Of a stretch of DNA of 64,000 nt, positions 19,574-35,606 are shown one piece after another. Position numbers and translations under genes: made by a program. A model generated the notes under the pieces. That model was not told the origin of the DNA. It did no database searches and was given only the letters and a program-made list of their open reading frames with translations. Each line of letters begins with the position of its first letter. Positions within the stretch are counted from its first letter, which is position 1. Source of the stretch: Chloroflexota bacterium (GTDB taxonomy: Bacteria; Chloroflexota; Anaerolineae; JACRMK01); contig JACRMK010000046.1 of the NCBI GenBank assembly GCA_016235055.1, positions 34,958 through 98,957 of the forward strand, written 5' to 3'.

Positions 19574-19909
19574 CTACCAGATCCAGCGCTTCGGGCTGTA
19601 GCCGAAGACGAGCACGCCGCAGGCCGCGGCGGCCGAGACGACCGCCATGGCGATGACATCTTCGACGGGCGTCACGCCGAACAACCAGATGCCAAGCACC
19701 TGCTGCGGGTCGAAGTACCACGCGCCCCACTGCCCGCCGAGCGGGTCGGTGACGAGCATCCACAGTTCGGCGATCAGCACGACCGTGATGATTATGCGGC
19801 GGCGGCTCCAGAGAAAGCGCGCGTTGCGCGCCCACAGGATCGCCATGAACAGCGCGCCCATCGCCCCCGTCATCACGAGATAGGTGGCGCGCGGGGGAAT
19901 CAGATCCAT
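19574..19909 (-). CDS. Lycopene cyclase domain protein (heterodimeric CrtYc/CrtYd type), subunit 2
   Basis: 111-aa membrane protein with PVED (PxE[ED]) motif; ATGA overlap with upstream subunit. Confidence 0.75.
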   Translation of the reverse strand: MDLIPPRATYLVMTGAMGALFMAILWARNARFLWSRRRIIITVVLIAELWMLVTDPLGGQWGAWYFDPQQVLGIWLFGVTPVEDVIAMAVVSAAAACGVLVFGYSPKRWIW

Positions 19910-20223
19910 CAGACGCGGCCCTCCGCTTCGGCCAGGACGATCGTCAGTGCGCCGAACAACACGGTGATGGCGGCGATCCAGATCCACTCTTCAATCGGCA
20001 GGCCGAGCAGCCAGATATTGGCGATGTGCTCCGGCGCGTAGAACCAGACGCCGCGCCGCACGGCCAACGCGTCCCACAGCCAGCCGCCGGCCAGCGAGCC
20101 GAGCGTGACCCACGTCAGCGCGCGCCGCTGCTTCCAGAAGACCTGTCGCCAGCGCAGCAGCGCCAGCAGCGGCACGCCCATGCAGAGCGCCAGCCAGATC
20201 AGGTATGTGTAGTGACCGAACAT
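19909..20223 (-). CDS. Lycopene cyclase domain protein (heterodimeric CrtYc/CrtYd type), subunit 1
   Basis: 104-aa membrane protein with PIEE (PxEE) motif. Confidence 0.75.
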   Translation of the reverse strand: MFGHYTYLIWLALCMGVPLLALLRWRQVFWKQRRALTWVTLGSLAGGWLWDALAVRRGVWFYAPEHIANIWLLGLPIEEWIWIAAITVLFGALTIVLAEAEGRV

Positions 20224-20233
20224 AGCTGTTATC

Positions 20234-20452
20234 GGGGATCGGGTTTCAGGTGTCAGGGATCAGGGGATAGGGTATAGGGCATAGTGAGAGCGTCTTGCGC
20301 CGGCCGTCGACATCCGCTTCGCGCAGCAACGCCTTGCTCCGATCCCGAATACCCGATGCCCGGACTCTATGCCTTGTTCCCCGAAACCTGACCCCTGATT
20401 CTCTATTCCCTATCCCCTGATCCCTGACACCCGATCCCTGATACCCGACCCC
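20234..20452. repeat. Large imperfect palindrome in divergent promoter region
   Basis: Left arm GTGTCAGGGATCAGGGGATAGGG is mirrored as CCCTATCCCCTGATCCCTGACAC about 140 bp away; arms extend to about 50-85 bp with mismatches. Confidence 0.6.
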
Positions 20453-20500
20453 CGCTCAACGCGTTTGATTATACCGCCGATATTGTGGTATTGTGATGAT

Positions 20501-21724
20501 ATGCCGCGCGCTGAGCCGCGGCTTCCGAAAATGTCAGACCTCCGAATCAAAGGGCTTGTCGCCGCGATGAACCGCGCCCGCGAGGGGTGGAGTCACGGCG
20601 TGCCCGTCGCCGAAGCCGACGATTTCCGCCGCATGGTGATGGATACGGTCGCGCAAGTCGAAGCGATCTGCCGGCGCAACCAGGTCAAGCCGTCGCAACT
20701 GCCCGGCCCCTCGTACCGCGCGTACCGCTACCTCAAGTCGCTCGATCTGGCCGCGCTGCCGGTCTGCGACGAGTCGGCGGCGCCGTCGCGCGCCGTGCGC
20801 ATCAAGAACGCCATCGCGACCGCGAACCGCATCCGCGCCGACCTGCTGGCGCTGCCCGGCCGCGCCGAACCGGCCGCCCTGCAGCATGGCCCCGCGGCCG
20901 CGCTGCTGAAGCGCATCCAGTCGCAGTCGCGCGCGATCGAGGAGATCTGCGCGCGGCTGTCGAGCTCGCCGGCGCGCCTGCCGCTGCCGTCGCGCCGCGC
21001 GTACCAGTGGCTCAAGTTCCTCAGCGCGACCGACAATCTGCTGTCGCACTGGGCGACGCTGGCGCTGGTGCGCGAGATCATCGGCAGCCTGCGCTGGATC
21101 AAGCAGCGCTGGCCCGGCTACGCCTTCAGCTTCGAAATCTACCCGAGCGACTATCTGTACCGCGCCCAGGTCAATCACACGCAGGTGCGCATCGTCGCCG
21201 CGCCCGGTTTCGTCGGCGCGCCGCCCGATGCGCTCGAAGCGTTGGTGCGCGCGGCGGTCAGCCGCCGGCAGGCGAGCGCAACCAACGCGGTCAAGCGCTA
21301 CATCAACGGCGAGGACTTCGCCGAGGCGTCGCTGGCGTTCGAGTTGTGCCTGGAGCGCCCCGACGGCGGCCTGAAGGGGCGCCACTACGACCTGGCCGAG
21401 GTGTTCGCGCGCGTCAACGCCGCGTACTTCGACGGGTGCATGCCGCGCCCGCGCCTGCAGTGGAGCCGCACCGTCACCGAGCGCACGATGGGCCACTATC
21501 AGGTCGAGAGCGACACGGTGATGATCAGCATCGCGCTCGACGACCATCGCGTGCCGCAGTACGCCATCGACTTCGTGATGTACCACGAACTGCTGCACAA
21601 GCAACTGGGCGTGCAGTTCGTGGACGGGCGGCACTACGCCCACACGCGCGCCTTCCGCGAGGCCGAGAAGCGCTTCAAGCGCTACGACGACGCCGAGGCG
21701 TTCCTGCAGTCGCTGGCGCGCTGA
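20501..21724 (+). CDS. Putative zinc metallohydrolase with C-terminal DUF45/SprT-like HExxH domain and N-terminal internally repeated domain
   Basis: C-terminus ...ISIALDDHRVPQYAIDFVMYHELLHKQ...HTRAF resembles YgjP/DUF45 metal-dependent hydrolases; two about 33-aa N-terminal repeats (...EAICRRNQ...PSYRAYRYLK / ...EEICARLS...PSRRAYQWLK). Confidence 0.65.
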   Translation: MPRAEPRLPKMSDLRIKGLVAAMNRAREGWSHGVPVAEADDFRRMVMDTVAQVEAICRRNQVKPSQLPGPSYRAYRYLKSLDLAALPVCDESAAPSRAVRIKNAIATANRIRADLLALPGRAEPAALQHGPAAALLKRIQSQSRAIEEICARLSSSPARLPLPSRRAYQWLKFLSATDNLLSHWATLALVREIIGSLRWIKQRWPGYAFSFEIYPSDYLYRAQVNHTQVRIVAAPGFVGAPPDALEALVRAAVSRRQASATNAVKRYINGEDFAEASLAFELCLERPDGGLKGRHYDLAEVFARVNAAYFDGCMPRPRLQWSRTVTERTMGHYQVESDTVMISIALDDHRVPQYAIDFVMYHELLHKQLGVQFVDGRHYAHTRAFREAEKRFKRYDDAEAFLQSLAR

Positions 21725-21739
21725 CCGGAAAGCCCACCG

Positions 21740-21955
21740 CAGAGCACGCAAAGAGCGCAAAGAAAAGCTTTGTTGACCGTGAATAACGCGAATTGGCGCT
21801 AGTCGAACGCTAACCGCAGAGAACGCAGAGGAAAACAAGACCAACCGCAAAGCACGCAAAGAGCGCAAAGGAGAACCCTGCTTTCGATTGGCGTCGATTC
21901 GCGTTATTCGCGGATAGAGAGCTTTTCTTTGCGGTCTTTGCGCCCTTTGCGGTTC
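21740..21955. repeat. MITE-like element, family 2 (nested inverted repeats; inner GAATAACGCGAAT / ATTCGCGTTATTC)
   Basis: Outer inverted repeat CGCAAAGAGCGCAAAG / CTTTGCGCCCTTTGCG and inner CCGCGAATAACGCGAAT-type termini; related copy at 56831-56974 and solo ends near 2712, 6465, 24808. Confidence 0.6.
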
Positions 21956-22026
21956 AATGTTCTTGGTGTCCATTCGTGTTCCTTCGTGGACAAAGGTGAT
22001 GTTGAATCTTCCCTGGGGATTTTCTA

Positions 22027-23052: not shown

Positions 23053-23057
23053 TTGGC

Positions 23058-23092
23058 AACCCTTCGGGTCTTCAAGACCCGAAGGGTTTTTT
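23058..23092 (+). terminator. Rho-independent terminator (CCCTTCGGGTC family) after dehydrogenase gene
   Basis: Palindrome AACCCTTCGGGTC-ttcaa-GACCCGAAGGGTT followed by TTTTTT. Confidence 0.65.
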
Positions 23093-23121
23093 GGATTCGC
23101 GAAACGACCGGAGGCGCGGAT

Positions 23122-24765
23122 ATGATCATCAAACGCCTGCTATACCTCGCCTGCACGCTCGTCGCGCTGTTTGCCGCGTACCGCATCCTTGTCGTGGACG
23201 GCGGCATCGTACGTACCTCGACCGTCGTAGATGGCATCCCGGTCGAGATATTCGCGCCGGCACCTGAGCCGAACGCGCGGCTGCCGCGAGTGTACCCTGC
23301 TGTCGTTATCGCACATGGCTATGCGGGAAGCAAGCAGGTCATGTACGAACTGGCGCGCACCCCGATCTATTTGTCACCGGATCAAGGTTTGTTTGTAGCG
23401 GGATTGCTCTCTGGTCCTGGACAGGCAATCGCTGTCACGTTCGACTTCACCGGGCATGGCGCTAATACAACTCCGCTTTCAGCGACCGCACGACTAGATC
23501 AACTGCAGAAGGATATAGGCCGCATTGTGCAGTACGCGCGCTCGCTGCCCAATGTGGATCCAAATAGCATCGCTTTGATTGGTCACTCGATGGGGGCCGG
23601 CGCAGTCGTGCAATACGCCAATCAACACCCGGATATCAAGGGGGTCATATCCATTTCGGGAGGCGCTACCGAGGTGACGCCCAACGCGCCGAAGAATCTG
23701 CTATTGCTGGCCGGTGTTCTCGAATTCGATTCAATCAAGACAGCCCAGAAGATCGCTCTGGCAAACGCGGGGGGCTCGTCCGAAGCATTTTGGTCAGGAC
23801 GGGCGCGAGCATTGGAGTTTGTACCGTCTTCAGAGCACCTTACGGTTTTGTGGAATGACATGACGCTAGTCAGCGCGGCGAGTTGGTTACGGTATTGCTT
23901 TCTCGGAGGGATTCCAGATCGCCTGAGAATAATCGATCGTTGGGGACCATCATTTTGGCAAACGTTGCCACAATCACTGCTTACCGTGCGGGCTATTCAG
24001 GCAGCGCTCTTGCTATCGCTCGCCGTCTTCGTCCTCTTCTTCCCCCTCTCATCATTCGCCGTGTCGCGGCTCGGCCTGCGCGTGGCCGCGCCCGTGCCCG
24101 CCGGTCTGCCGTACGGGCAGGTGCTGCTCGTCGCGCTCGTGCCGGCCGTGCTCGCGCCGCTGATCCTGCGTGGGCTGTCGCTGACGCCGATTGACCCGGC
24201 GACGTGGCTGCCGATCCAGATCGTCAACTACATGGCGATGCATTTCCTGCTGTACGCCGCGCTAATGCTGGGAGTGCTGCGACTGTTCGGCGTGCGCGAC
24301 CTGTGGGCACGCATCCGGCGCAATCTGCGGCCGGCTGCGCTCGTGCTGGCGGCGCTGTTCTTCGCGTGGATCTACGTCACGAACGGGGTGGTGGCGCACC
24401 TGACGTGGCTGAACTTCCTGCCGTCGGGCAGCCGGCTGTGGCTCTGGCCGGTGGTCTGCGCGTTGGCGATGCCGTACTTCGTGCTGAACGAGTATGTGAC
24501 GAAAGCGGCGACGATGCGGCGGAGCGCGCTGAACGAGTTGACCTCGAAGGTCGCGCTGATCGGCTCGCTGCTGTTCGCGGTGGCGATCACGCCGGGGTTG
24601 TTCTTCCTGCTGCTGGTGATCGCCGTCTTTGCGGTCTTCTTCGCCGTGTATGGCGCGTACGCGGTGCGCCTGCATAGCCTGACCGGCAACCCGCTGATCG
24701 CCGCGCTCGGCTACGCGGCTATGACCGCCGCGTTGCTCGTCGCCGTGTTCCCCATCACCGGATAG
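23122..24765 (+). CDS. Alpha/beta-hydrolase fold protein fused to C-terminal polytopic membrane domain
   Basis: GGAGG 7 nt upstream of internal ATG; N-terminal signal anchor; GHSMGAG nucleophile elbow (GxSxG); about 250-aa C-terminal region of 6-8 predicted TM helices. Confidence 0.75.
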   Translation: MIIKRLLYLACTLVALFAAYRILVVDGGIVRTSTVVDGIPVEIFAPAPEPNARLPRVYPAVVIAHGYAGSKQVMYELARTPIYLSPDQGLFVAGLLSGPGQAIAVTFDFTGHGANTTPLSATARLDQLQKDIGRIVQYARSLPNVDPNSIALIGHSMGAGAVVQYANQHPDIKGVISISGGATEVTPNAPKNLLLLAGVLEFDSIKTAQKIALANAGGSSEAFWSGRARALEFVPSSEHLTVLWNDMTLVSAASWLRYCFLGGIPDRLRIIDRWGPSFWQTLPQSLLTVRAIQAALLLSLAVFVLFFPLSSFAVSRLGLRVAAPVPAGLPYGQVLLVALVPAVLAPLILRGLSLTPIDPATWLPIQIVNYMAMHFLLYAALMLGVLRLFGVRDLWARIRRNLRPAALVLAALFFAWIYVTNGVVAHLTWLNFLPSGSRLWLWPVVCALAMPYFVLNEYVTKAATMRRSALNELTSKVALIGSLLFAVAITPGLFFLLLVIAVFAVFFAVYGAYAVRLHSLTGNPLIAALGYAAMTAALLVAVFPITG

Positions 24766-34754: not shown

Positions 34755-35606
34755 ATGGCAATCAAGACGGTCGGTGTTGTCGGCTGCGGTTTGATGGGGT
34801 CGGGTATTGTCGAAGTCTGCGCGAAGAGCGGCTACGACGTCATTGTAATGGAGATGAACGACGGGCTGTTGAAGCGCGGGCTGGAGCGCATCGATGCCAG
34901 CCTGGCCAAAGCGGTTGAGCGCAAGAAGCTGGACGCCGCCGCCCGCGACGGCATCCGGGCGCGCATCCGTGGCACCACCGGTTTCGCCGATTTCCGCGAC
35001 GCCGATTTCGTCGTCGAGGCGGCGATCGAGAACCTCGACGAGAAGAAGCAGATCTTCGCGCAGCTCGACACAGTCACCCGGCCGGACGCAACTCTGTCGT
35101 CGAACACGTCGTCGCTGTCGATCATCGACATGGCGTCGGCGACGAAGCGGCCGGCGCAGGTGCTCGGCATGCACTTCTTCAATCCGGTGCCGGTCATGCC
35201 GCTGCTCGAGATGGTGCGCTCGTTCCTGACGAGCGAGGCGACCTACCAGGCGGCGCGGGCTTTCGGCGAATCGCTCGGCAAGACCGTGGTCGTGGCGAAG
35301 GACAAGCCGGGCTTCATCGTCAACGCGTTGCTGATCCCGTACCTGCTCGACGCGATCCGCATGGTCGAAGAGGGCGCCGCGTCACGCGAGGATATCGACG
35401 CCGGCATTCATCTGGGGCTGAACCACCCGATGGGCCCGCTGACGCTGACGGACTTCGTGGGGCTGGACACGACGCTCTACGTGGCCGACGCGATGTTCGC
35501 GGAGACGAAGAACGCGCGTTACGCCGCGCCGACGCTGCTGCGCCGCATGGTCACGGCCGGGCACATGGGCCGCAAGAGCGGCAAGGGGTTCTACGAGTAT
35601 GAGTGA
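34755..35606 (+). CDS. hbd: 3-hydroxyacyl-CoA / 3-hydroxybutyryl-CoA dehydrogenase
   Basis: N-terminal VGVVGCGLMGSGI Rossmann motif; AAGGAGAA upstream of internal ATG; C-terminal dimerisation domain. Confidence 0.9.
   Translation: MAIKTVGVVGCGLMGSGIVEVCAKSGYDVIVMEMNDGLLKRGLERIDASLAKAVERKKLDAAARDGIRARIRGTTGFADFRDADFVVEAAIENLDEKKQIFAQLDTVTRPDATLSSNTSSLSIIDMASATKRPAQVLGMHFFNPVPVMPLLEMVRSFLTSEATYQAARAFGESLGKTVVVAKDKPGFIVNALLIPYLLDAIRMVEEGAASREDIDAGIHLGLNHPMGPLTLTDFVGLDTTLYVADAMFAETKNARYAAPTLLRRMVTAGHMGRKSGKGFYEYE

Follow-up and report, generated by a model that had tools for sequence, protein, structure and literature searches.

Crosslink-repair proteases of the Spartan and Wss1 type are well established in eukaryotes, and in Spartan it is the zinc-binding subdomain that shapes or gates the cleft. 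Besides this subdomain, human Spartan (SPRTN) has a basic region and ubiquitin-, PCNA- and p97-binding motifs (PMC9240642). Also described are Wss1 of yeast, with a minimal protease domain that lacks a zinc-binding subdomain and with SUMO- and Cdc48-binding tails, the minigluzincins selecase, projannalysin and proabylysin, which are stand-alone archaeal, soluble zincins of ~110 amino acids (aa) without N-terminal modules, and the bacterial stand-alone SprT-family proteins. Here we analyzed a 64,000-nucleotide (nt) stretch of DNA from a Chloroflexota bacterium (Anaerolineae; JACRMK01), namely positions 34,958 to 98,957 of the forward strand of contig JACRMK010000046.1 in assembly GCA_016235055.1, which is referred to as the window. 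The gene at positions 20501 to 21724 of the window encodes a protein of 407 aa that we identify with high confidence as a SprT-like zinc protease, its activity being predicted, with a novel duplicated extension. The extension of this bacterial protein is N-terminal (~290 aa), while that of Spartan is C-terminal.

An initial annotation had described the product as a DUF45/SprT-like HExxH hydrolase whose C-terminal part of ~150 aa is preceded by ~250 aa with two internal repeats of ~33 residues. Both sizes had to be corrected, since the catalytic part actually comprises ~110 aa (295–407) and the N-terminal part ~290 aa. The protein appears to be soluble and of the cytoplasmic type, and consists of four modules, two helical units, a middle domain and the catalytic domain. 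The corresponding features are as follows.

20501–21724 (stop codon 21722–21724 included), + strand: gene for the SprT-like protein, 407 aa (open reading frame, G+C, homologues)
20534–20800, + strand: helical repeat unit 1, aa 12–100 (predicted helices 19–32, 36–59 and 69–80)
20657–20743, + strand: conserved core of repeat 1, aa 53–81, VEAICRRNQVKPSQLPGPSYRAYRYLKSL (local alignment)
20801–21112, + strand: helical repeat unit 2, aa 101–204 (predicted helices 104–117, 130–152, 162–174 and 177–203)
20936–21022, + strand: conserved core of repeat 2, aa 146–174, IEEICARLSSSPARLPLPSRRAYQWLKFL (local alignment)
21113–21370, + strand: middle beta3-alpha3 domain, aa 205–290 (predicted structure)
21383–21721, + strand: SprT-like minimal zincin catalytic domain, aa 295–407 (Pfam matches of relatives, profile match, model, Foldseek)
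21584–21598, + strand: HELLH, aa 362–366, two predicted zinc ligands and the catalytic Glu (motif, conservation)
21641–21655, + strand: H381-T-R-A-F385, with H381 as putative third zinc ligand at +15 from H366 (motif, Spartan alignment)

The HExxH character that had been assigned to the protein, with HELLH followed by H...F, was borne out. HELLH sits inside a predicted helix (353–369), and the elements of the catalytic domain follow one another in the order of a helix with FxRVNAAYFxGxL, three strands, the HExxH helix and C-terminal helices. H362, E363, H366 and H381 are kept in 294 to 296 of the 297 family sequences, and the spacing between the second and the third His is 15 in every family sequence where the motif was located. 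In an alignment of 42 sequences, H362, E363, H366, G370, H381, F385, E389 and F392 are invariant, while N306, F310 and W321 are conserved to at least 98% in the family.

The assignment to a family was made at the level of the relatives. PF10263 (SprT-like, gathering score 25.6 bits) was matched by 21 of 42 relatives at E ≤ 0.01, with a best E of 3.3e-8. Ten relatives were scored against this model (positions 2–97 of 108), five of them reaching 26.6–29.9 bits and three 24.2–25.4 bits; the family straddles the gathering threshold. The family profile matched the SprT domain of Spartan (6mdx) with an E of 3.2e-4, and the N-terminal helix motif, the Trp strand, HExxH and H-x3-F were all in register. 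In this alignment, VFxRVNAAYFxGxL...LtW of the family is placed on LFVQFNDQFFWGQL...VKW of Spartan, the SprT motif F-x3-N-x2-[FY]F-x-G-x-L and the Trp strand are present, and H381 is aligned with the His of the HGPEF motif of Spartan. An AlphaFold2 model built from the family alignment reached a pLDDT of 90.2 and a pTM of 0.70, and Foldseek with the C-terminal ~110 residues returned jannalysin, selecase and abylysin (TM 0.62–0.73) as well as Spartan with a probability of 1.0, and Wss1 with a probability of 0.84. The family Pfam matches, the Spartan profile match and the predicted fold therefore identify the C-terminal domain as a minimal zincin of the SprT-like family of ~110 aa. Judged by sequence, the window protein would be a borderline member of the SprT-like family, and by the threshold of PF01863 (DUF45/YgjP-like, gathering score 26 bits) no member of DUF45. 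For the window sequence alone, the Pfam check proposed in the initial annotation had the outcome that was named there as refuting, with no DUF45 or SprT match at E ≤ 1; the SprT half was rescued at the family level.

With the SprT domain of Spartan (6mdx, 6mdw) the protein shares the minimal zincin fold at 22% identity (Foldseek probability 1.0), the HExxH, the third His at exactly +15 followed by xxxF, the FxxxNxxFFxGxL helix and the Trp strand. In contrast, the ubiquitin-, PCNA- and p97-binding motifs of Spartan are missing. Wss1 (5xbn) resembles the window protein in having a minimal protease domain without zinc-binding subdomain (structural match probability 0.84, TM 0.52), although no sequence-level match was obtained and the SUMO- and Cdc48-binding tails are absent from the window protein. 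The best structural matches were the minigluzincins (4qhf, 4jix, 4jiu; TM 0.62–0.73 on the target), whose identity is 10–18% and for which no sequence-profile match was found. The stand-alone SprT-family proteins of bacteria and the core relatives of ~240 aa (P0290, P0288) share the middle and SprT domains but are without helical units.

That the open reading frame 20501–21724 is a real gene is confirmed. A search of 5.8 billion proteins returned 327 relatives, and since the top matches are full-length homologues at 40–56% identity, accompanied by one identical fragment, the gene is coding. Its G+C content at the third codon position is 0.926, and that of Pfam-verified neighbours is 0.86–0.92. 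The antisense open reading frame 20534–21973 is regarded as a shadow because its value is only 0.654. Three starts are available, ATG 20501, ATG 20531 and TTG 20465, the last giving the longest open reading frame; ATG 20531 may be the true start, as its predicted product (MSDLRIKGLV...) would agree with the N-termini of the homologues. A Shine-Dalgarno sequence is absent before both ATG 20501 and ATG 20531. By eye, a promoter-like arrangement can be seen at 20465–20500 (TTGATT, an 18-nt spacer and TATTGT ending 6 nt before ATG 20501), which is sub-threshold and was not called by the consensus scan; it would give a leaderless or near-leaderless mRNA. A hydrophobic N-terminal stretch was not seen in the 407-aa protein, for which no signal-peptide or transmembrane prediction was made. 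In the databases, the relatives are mostly named 'hypothetical protein', and occasionally 'SprT-like domain-containing protein' or 'M48 family metallopeptidase'.

The N-terminal module consists of a three-helix unit of ~90 aa that is present twice. The local alignment of aa 53–81 with aa 146–174 scored 74 as compared with 28 ± 5 for shuffles (z ~9–10), and at the DNA level the two repeat cores are 71% identical across 55 nt. In addition, aligning aa 12–100 with aa 101–204 by hhalign gave probabilities of 99.2–99.4% with E values of 1.3e-19 and 1.9e-21 over 67 columns. The duplication that had been noticed initially is thus real (z ~9–10), while the unit is not ~33 residues long but ~90 aa (67 profile columns). 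Repeat unit 1 ends in LPxPSYRAYxYLKxLDLxxLP and contains a near-invariant C57, and the motif of repeat unit 2 is LPxxSRRAYQWLxFL. In the model, a short helix in each unit is followed by a long one, by a Pro-rich loop (LPxPS) and by a third helix with RAYxYLK or RAYQWLKFL. The structure prediction that the initial annotation had called for thus yielded three-helix units and revealed an additional beta3-alpha3 domain, but no credible known fold for the repeats.

The N-terminal module appears from sequence searches to be family-specific. When aa 1–204 were compared with 1.84 billion representative proteins by filter-free phmmer, 322 matches were obtained, and the best 150 of these 322 were all proteins or fragments of the same family. 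No Pfam match to the helical module was found in any of 42 members, and Foldseek searches of the PDB and of a viral structure library, made with the full model and with the model of aa 1–290, returned nothing credible for the helical repeats. The best Foldseek match of the repeats, the armadillo domain of mDia1, had a probability of only 0.20 and is not credible. Designed helical bundles and IL-6 were the sole PDB matches of the N-terminal module in profile searches and were treated as helix-composition artefacts. A winged-helix match to DprA in one relative was sub-threshold (20.1 as compared with 22.9 bits), was absent from 42 members at E ≤ 0.01 and was not used.

Between the helical units and the catalytic domain lies a middle domain without metal ligands, with the consensus APxxVLxALxxxAL. 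The region of aa 1–290 modelled alone reached a pLDDT of 93.1 and a pTM of 0.86. In the model, the order beta-beta-beta-alpha-alpha-alpha is common to the middle and catalytic domains, and hhalign paired the two in register, placing ALVxAAL over YHELLH and YAxxEAF over YAHTxAF, with an E of 0.008–0.013 (probability 3–5%) as compared with 0.16–0.5 for control pairs. Weak reciprocal matches between the middle and SprT domains were also obtained with hidden Markov models (HMM). When the catalytic domain was removed before the Foldseek search, Spartan, selecase, jannalysin and MATCAP were still among the PDB matches (probability 0.15–0.35), and ~12 of the top 50 viral matches were annotated as SprT-like, IrrE-like or metallopeptidase. 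Each of these lines is weak; since register, topology and fold-search enrichment agree, we keep the hypothesis that the middle domain is a catalytically dead, degenerate copy of the protease fold, which we consider slightly more probable than its opposite.

To recover shorter relatives, aa 205–407 were used as the query. Five relatives of 303–327 aa (P0259, P0270, P0272, P0268, P0271) have a single helical unit, followed by the middle and SprT domains. This unit scored 74–101 bits against the repeat-2 profile and 32–48 bits against repeat 1, repeat unit 2 being the one retained, and the starts of these proteins are genuine because the upstream gaps of 155 nt and 13 nt are too short for another unit. 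Other relatives of ~240 aa (P0290, P0288) are devoid of units and retain the middle domain (HMM E of 3e-4 and 2.4e-6) and the SprT domain (5.5e-35 and 1.6e-52); P0290 lies above the cut-off of PF10263 with 25.8 bits. The one-unit and unit-less relatives thus form a series from the core (~240 aa) to the core with one unit (~310 aa) and the core with two units (~400 aa), of which the window gene is the two-unit form. The C-terminus of P0288 (247 aa) is a SEC-C zinc-binding motif (PF02810, E 7e-10), which points to a shared core that acquired different accessory modules in different lineages.

The core-only P0290 gene is found at locus L088 (1609–6747), where it is preceded on its strand by a UvrA-like gene (994 aa) and by two open reading frames without annotation. 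These two overlap by 4 nt, and the second is rich in charged, coiled-coil-like sequence. Both were tested as carriers of the helical module and are unrelated to it.

The distribution of the family was scanned in one genome per species. It is present in at least 276 species genomes, and among those listed nearly all are metagenome-assembled genomes of Anaerolineae or other Chloroflexota. A few loci belong to genomes that carry the labels Pyrinomonadaceae, Roseobacter, Nitrospinota, Calditrichaceae, Heliobacteriaceae and Clostridiales, which may reflect binning errors or horizontal transfer. In one metagenome-assembled genome (CAZCJG01), two copies of the family were found (L058 and L065).

The gene neighbourhood was surveyed by clustering all open reading frames from 80 retrieved loci, the window and loci fetched earlier, and neighbours of the uracil-DNA glycosylase (UDG) superfamily were counted in those 78 loci whose downstream sequence reached 700 nt or more. 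A UDG-superfamily gene is the most frequent neighbour of all. It is present in 31 of the 78 loci, on the same strand throughout, and lies directly downstream in 25 of them, with a median gap of ~40 nt and several 4-nt stop/start overlaps. In ~4 loci it is found immediately upstream, so that the pairing occurs in both gene orders; two more upstream matches are weak or end at contig edges. The neighbour is an orthologue of the family-5 UDGB of Thermus thermophilus (2d3y, E 1.6e-65), and the adjacency extends over at least 12 of 29 sub-clusters defined at 50% identity. Examples of the orthologue are as follows.

Locus L003, 9236–9919, same strand as the family gene: UDGB orthologue
Locus L001, 9336–10079, same strand as the family gene: UDGB orthologue
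~29 further loci, same strand as the family gene: UDGB orthologues

In ~10 loci, the row of genes continues with those for a BFN-domain nuclease, DnaB, DnaD-like, DnaC-like and RecA proteins. The context survey of homologues suggested in the initial annotation gave UDG in 31 of 78 loci, none in the window or its clade, and otherwise heterogeneous contexts. Among the upstream regions of the family genes, no shared 8-mer stood out. PADLOC and PHROGs gave no matches at E ≤ 1, and a defence or phage origin was dropped because both were empty.

We propose that the C-terminal domain would bind one zinc ion via H362, H366 and H381 and would hydrolyze peptide bonds, E363 serving as the general base. 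The middle domain would pack beside the catalytic domain and shape or gate the substrate cleft, and the duplicated helical module would select or sense the target. The protein would then serve to remove proteins that have become stuck on or cross-linked to DNA in the course of base-excision repair or replication, with adducts at abasic sites arising from base-excision repair, or a trapped glycosylase, as candidate substrates. This DNA-repair role is suggested by the homology to Spartan and by how often the gene stands in an apparent operon with that of a family-5 UDG; some relatives are also found near genes for DnaB, RecA, a nuclease or UvrA-like proteins. As a function, the clearing of proteins stuck on DNA is put forward tentatively. 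That the N-terminal part is a substrate-targeting extension, as had been supposed initially, is plausible, and the helical module may have a DNA-binding role that is unrecognised.

Several observations weigh against the repair role and the Spartan assignment behind it. On its own, the window protein had no match at E ≤ 1 in Pfam or NCBIfam and no meaningful one in the PDB, and it lacks the zinc-binding subdomain and the basic region of Spartan, the alignment stopping before the subdomain. For aa 1–290, no recognised DNA-binding domain was found in Pfam, the PDB or the viral structure library, and structure searches of the PDB and the viral library matched no DNA-binding fold to the helical module, whose net charge is mildly positive (median +5 for repeat 1, +1 for repeat 2). 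A UDG gene is absent across the whole 64-kb window, and the neighbours of the gene there are unrelated to DNA repair. The UDG adjacency is confined to two of 14 deep clades, the clade of the window being without it, and it is possible that it represents inherited synteny, that is, phylogenetic inertia. Contexts without UDG are heterogeneous, two of them with mobile-element genes. The LexA box GAAC-N4-GTTC was not found as an exact copy upstream of 77 family genes, and copies with one mismatch numbered 4 as compared with 6.6 expected. Finally, judged by titles and abstracts, literature searches turned up no paper on a bacterial SprT-type crosslink protease or on a pairing of SprT and UDG. With these points taken into account, the best explanation as a whole, which combines the SprT-like identity, the proposed mechanism and the DNA-repair role, is offered with clear reservation. 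A more far-reaching version, in which the protein is a bacterial counterpart of Spartan that is activated by DNA, with the duplicated module reading DNA or the lesion, the dead copy acting as a gate and the operon with UDGB coupling the two activities in many Anaerolineae against abasic-site or glycosylase-DNA adducts from base-excision repair, is rather unlikely.

The alternative that survives best is a SprT-like zinc protease with a substrate other than DNA-bound protein, acting in protein quality control or on a specific cytoplasmic target picked out by the helical module, in which case the UDG adjacency would be no more than a clade-specific inherited gene order. It would account for the lack of UDG or any repair neighbour in the window and its clade, for the heterogeneous contexts of the loci without UDG, for the failure of the Pfam and structure searches (PDB and viral library) to detect a DNA-binding domain, and for the missing SOS box. 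However, UDGB is the commonest neighbour, and its adjacency is seen in either gene order, often with stop and start codons that overlap, and in at least 12 of 29 sub-clusters with a protein identity of only 35–45%, which would be hard to maintain without selection. Moreover, the biochemically characterised SprT-domain enzymes are, as far as we know, all DNA-dependent (PMC9240642). On balance, we regard a non-DNA substrate as unlikely, while taking it to be the most serious competitor of the DNA-repair role.

A second alternative is a signal-responsive regulatory protease of the IrrE/ImmA kind, in which an N-terminal sensor of single-stranded DNA or stress would direct the zincin to the cleavage of one repressor. 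Such proteases typically have a large sensor-like extension that is not catalytic, the minimal zincin fold would suit them, and IrrE appeared low in the Foldseek lists (3dti, probability 0.35) together with an IrrE-N-like viral match. This reading is nevertheless improbable, since none of 42 members has an IrrE or ImmA match in Pfam, no conserved adjacent gene for a helix-turn-helix repressor was found in the surveyed loci, whose contexts vary, and the motifs that are present are those specific to SprT.

Less probable still is a hydrolase of the DUF45/YgjP type (PF01863), in which the middle and HExxH domains would be the two halves of YgjP. DUF45 shares the HExxH...H...F arrangement and the zincin clan with the window protein, and the two-domain core of ~240 aa is about the size of YgjP as generally known. 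Two relatives bear the NCBI name 'M48 family metallopeptidase/peptidase', and weak YgjP-like matches (E 0.002–0.05) were obtained over the HExxH region. These scored only 14–18.7 bits, all below the cut-off of 26 bits, and were limited to the shared HExxH segment (model positions ~140–206), with one of 42 relatives matching at E ≤ 0.01 as compared with 21 of 42 for the SprT-like model; the N-terminal helix motif of SprT and the Spartan alignment are likewise present. Of the two families named in the initial annotation, SprT was thus retained (PF10263 in 21 of 42, 6mdx E 3.2e-4, Foldseek 1.0), while DUF45/YgjP found no support (1 of 42, at best 18.7 bits).

Finally, an ArdC-type protease that belongs to mobile elements or acts in anti-restriction, and that is carried on integrated elements, is brought to mind by locus L004, near genes for ArdC-N, a primase, UvrD, SymE and PIN, and by L087, which lies among transposases, but is highly improbable given the empty PHROGs and PADLOC searches, the occurrence in at least 276 species genomes of one class in mostly ordinary chromosomal contexts, and the housekeeping genes and uniform G+C around the window gene.

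In the window, the upstream, divergently oriented neighbours comprise two genes with lycopene-cyclase domains, an HDAC-type deacetylase and an L,D-transpeptidase, and the downstream neighbours a 2-hydroxyacid dehydrogenase, an alpha/beta hydrolase, a tRNA-editing-domain protein and an aldehyde:ferredoxin oxidoreductase. The two lycopene-cyclase reading frames (19574–20223, - strand; 137 and 104 aa) match PF18916 just above threshold, overlap at their ends and are divergent from the SprT-like gene; they look like a split cyclase of the heterodimeric type. Downstream, the gene at 23053–24765 (+ strand) encodes 570 aa with an N-terminal alpha/beta-hydrolase domain and a long hydrophobic C-terminal half that by eye resembles a multi-pass membrane protein, and it starts immediately after the stop of the 2-hydroxyacid dehydrogenase gene.

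Two repetitive structures flank the SprT-like gene. The divergent intergenic region upstream (20232–20448) contains an inverted repeat with 51-nt arms that are 84% complementary and a loop of 115 nt. The arms are made of short G-rich and C-rich units, the predicted fold has -106 kcal/mol (z -7.1 against shuffles), and the structure is unique in the window. Just past the stop codon lies a dispersed intergenic repeat, the core of which, CGATTCGCGTTATTCGCGG, occurs in seven copies in the window as compared with 0.02 expected.

21736–21954: CGATTCGCGTTATTCGCGG repeat sites next to the SprT-like gene
2727, 6470, 24805, 56870 and 56928: further CGATTCGCGTTATTCGCGG repeat sites

Next to the gene, the repeat consists of nested inverted repeats with arms of 34–37 nt and 81–88% complementarity, and the copies at 21777/21895 and 56870/56928 form inverted pairs. 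The element looks like a palindromic element of the REP or MITE kind. In the flanks of the gene, Rfam gave no real family, the only matches being far-sub-threshold ones of the long hairpin to miRNA precursors, and no intrinsic terminator was found.

The protein represents an uncharacterised family with an undescribed, internally duplicated N-terminal extension, in which the helical module of ~190 aa forms a domain that is missing from Pfam and for which the PDB offers no structural match. The pair of a dead and a live protease domain would, if true, illustrate nicely how the duplication of a domain can serve regulation. If the link to UDG were mere synteny, the family would be one more uncharacterised, clade-specific zincin. 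As a SprT-type protease that is found repeatedly in an apparent operon with a base-excision glycosylase, it is a concrete candidate for a bacterial crosslink-repair protease, and the natural variants with zero, one and two helical units ease work on the function of its domains.

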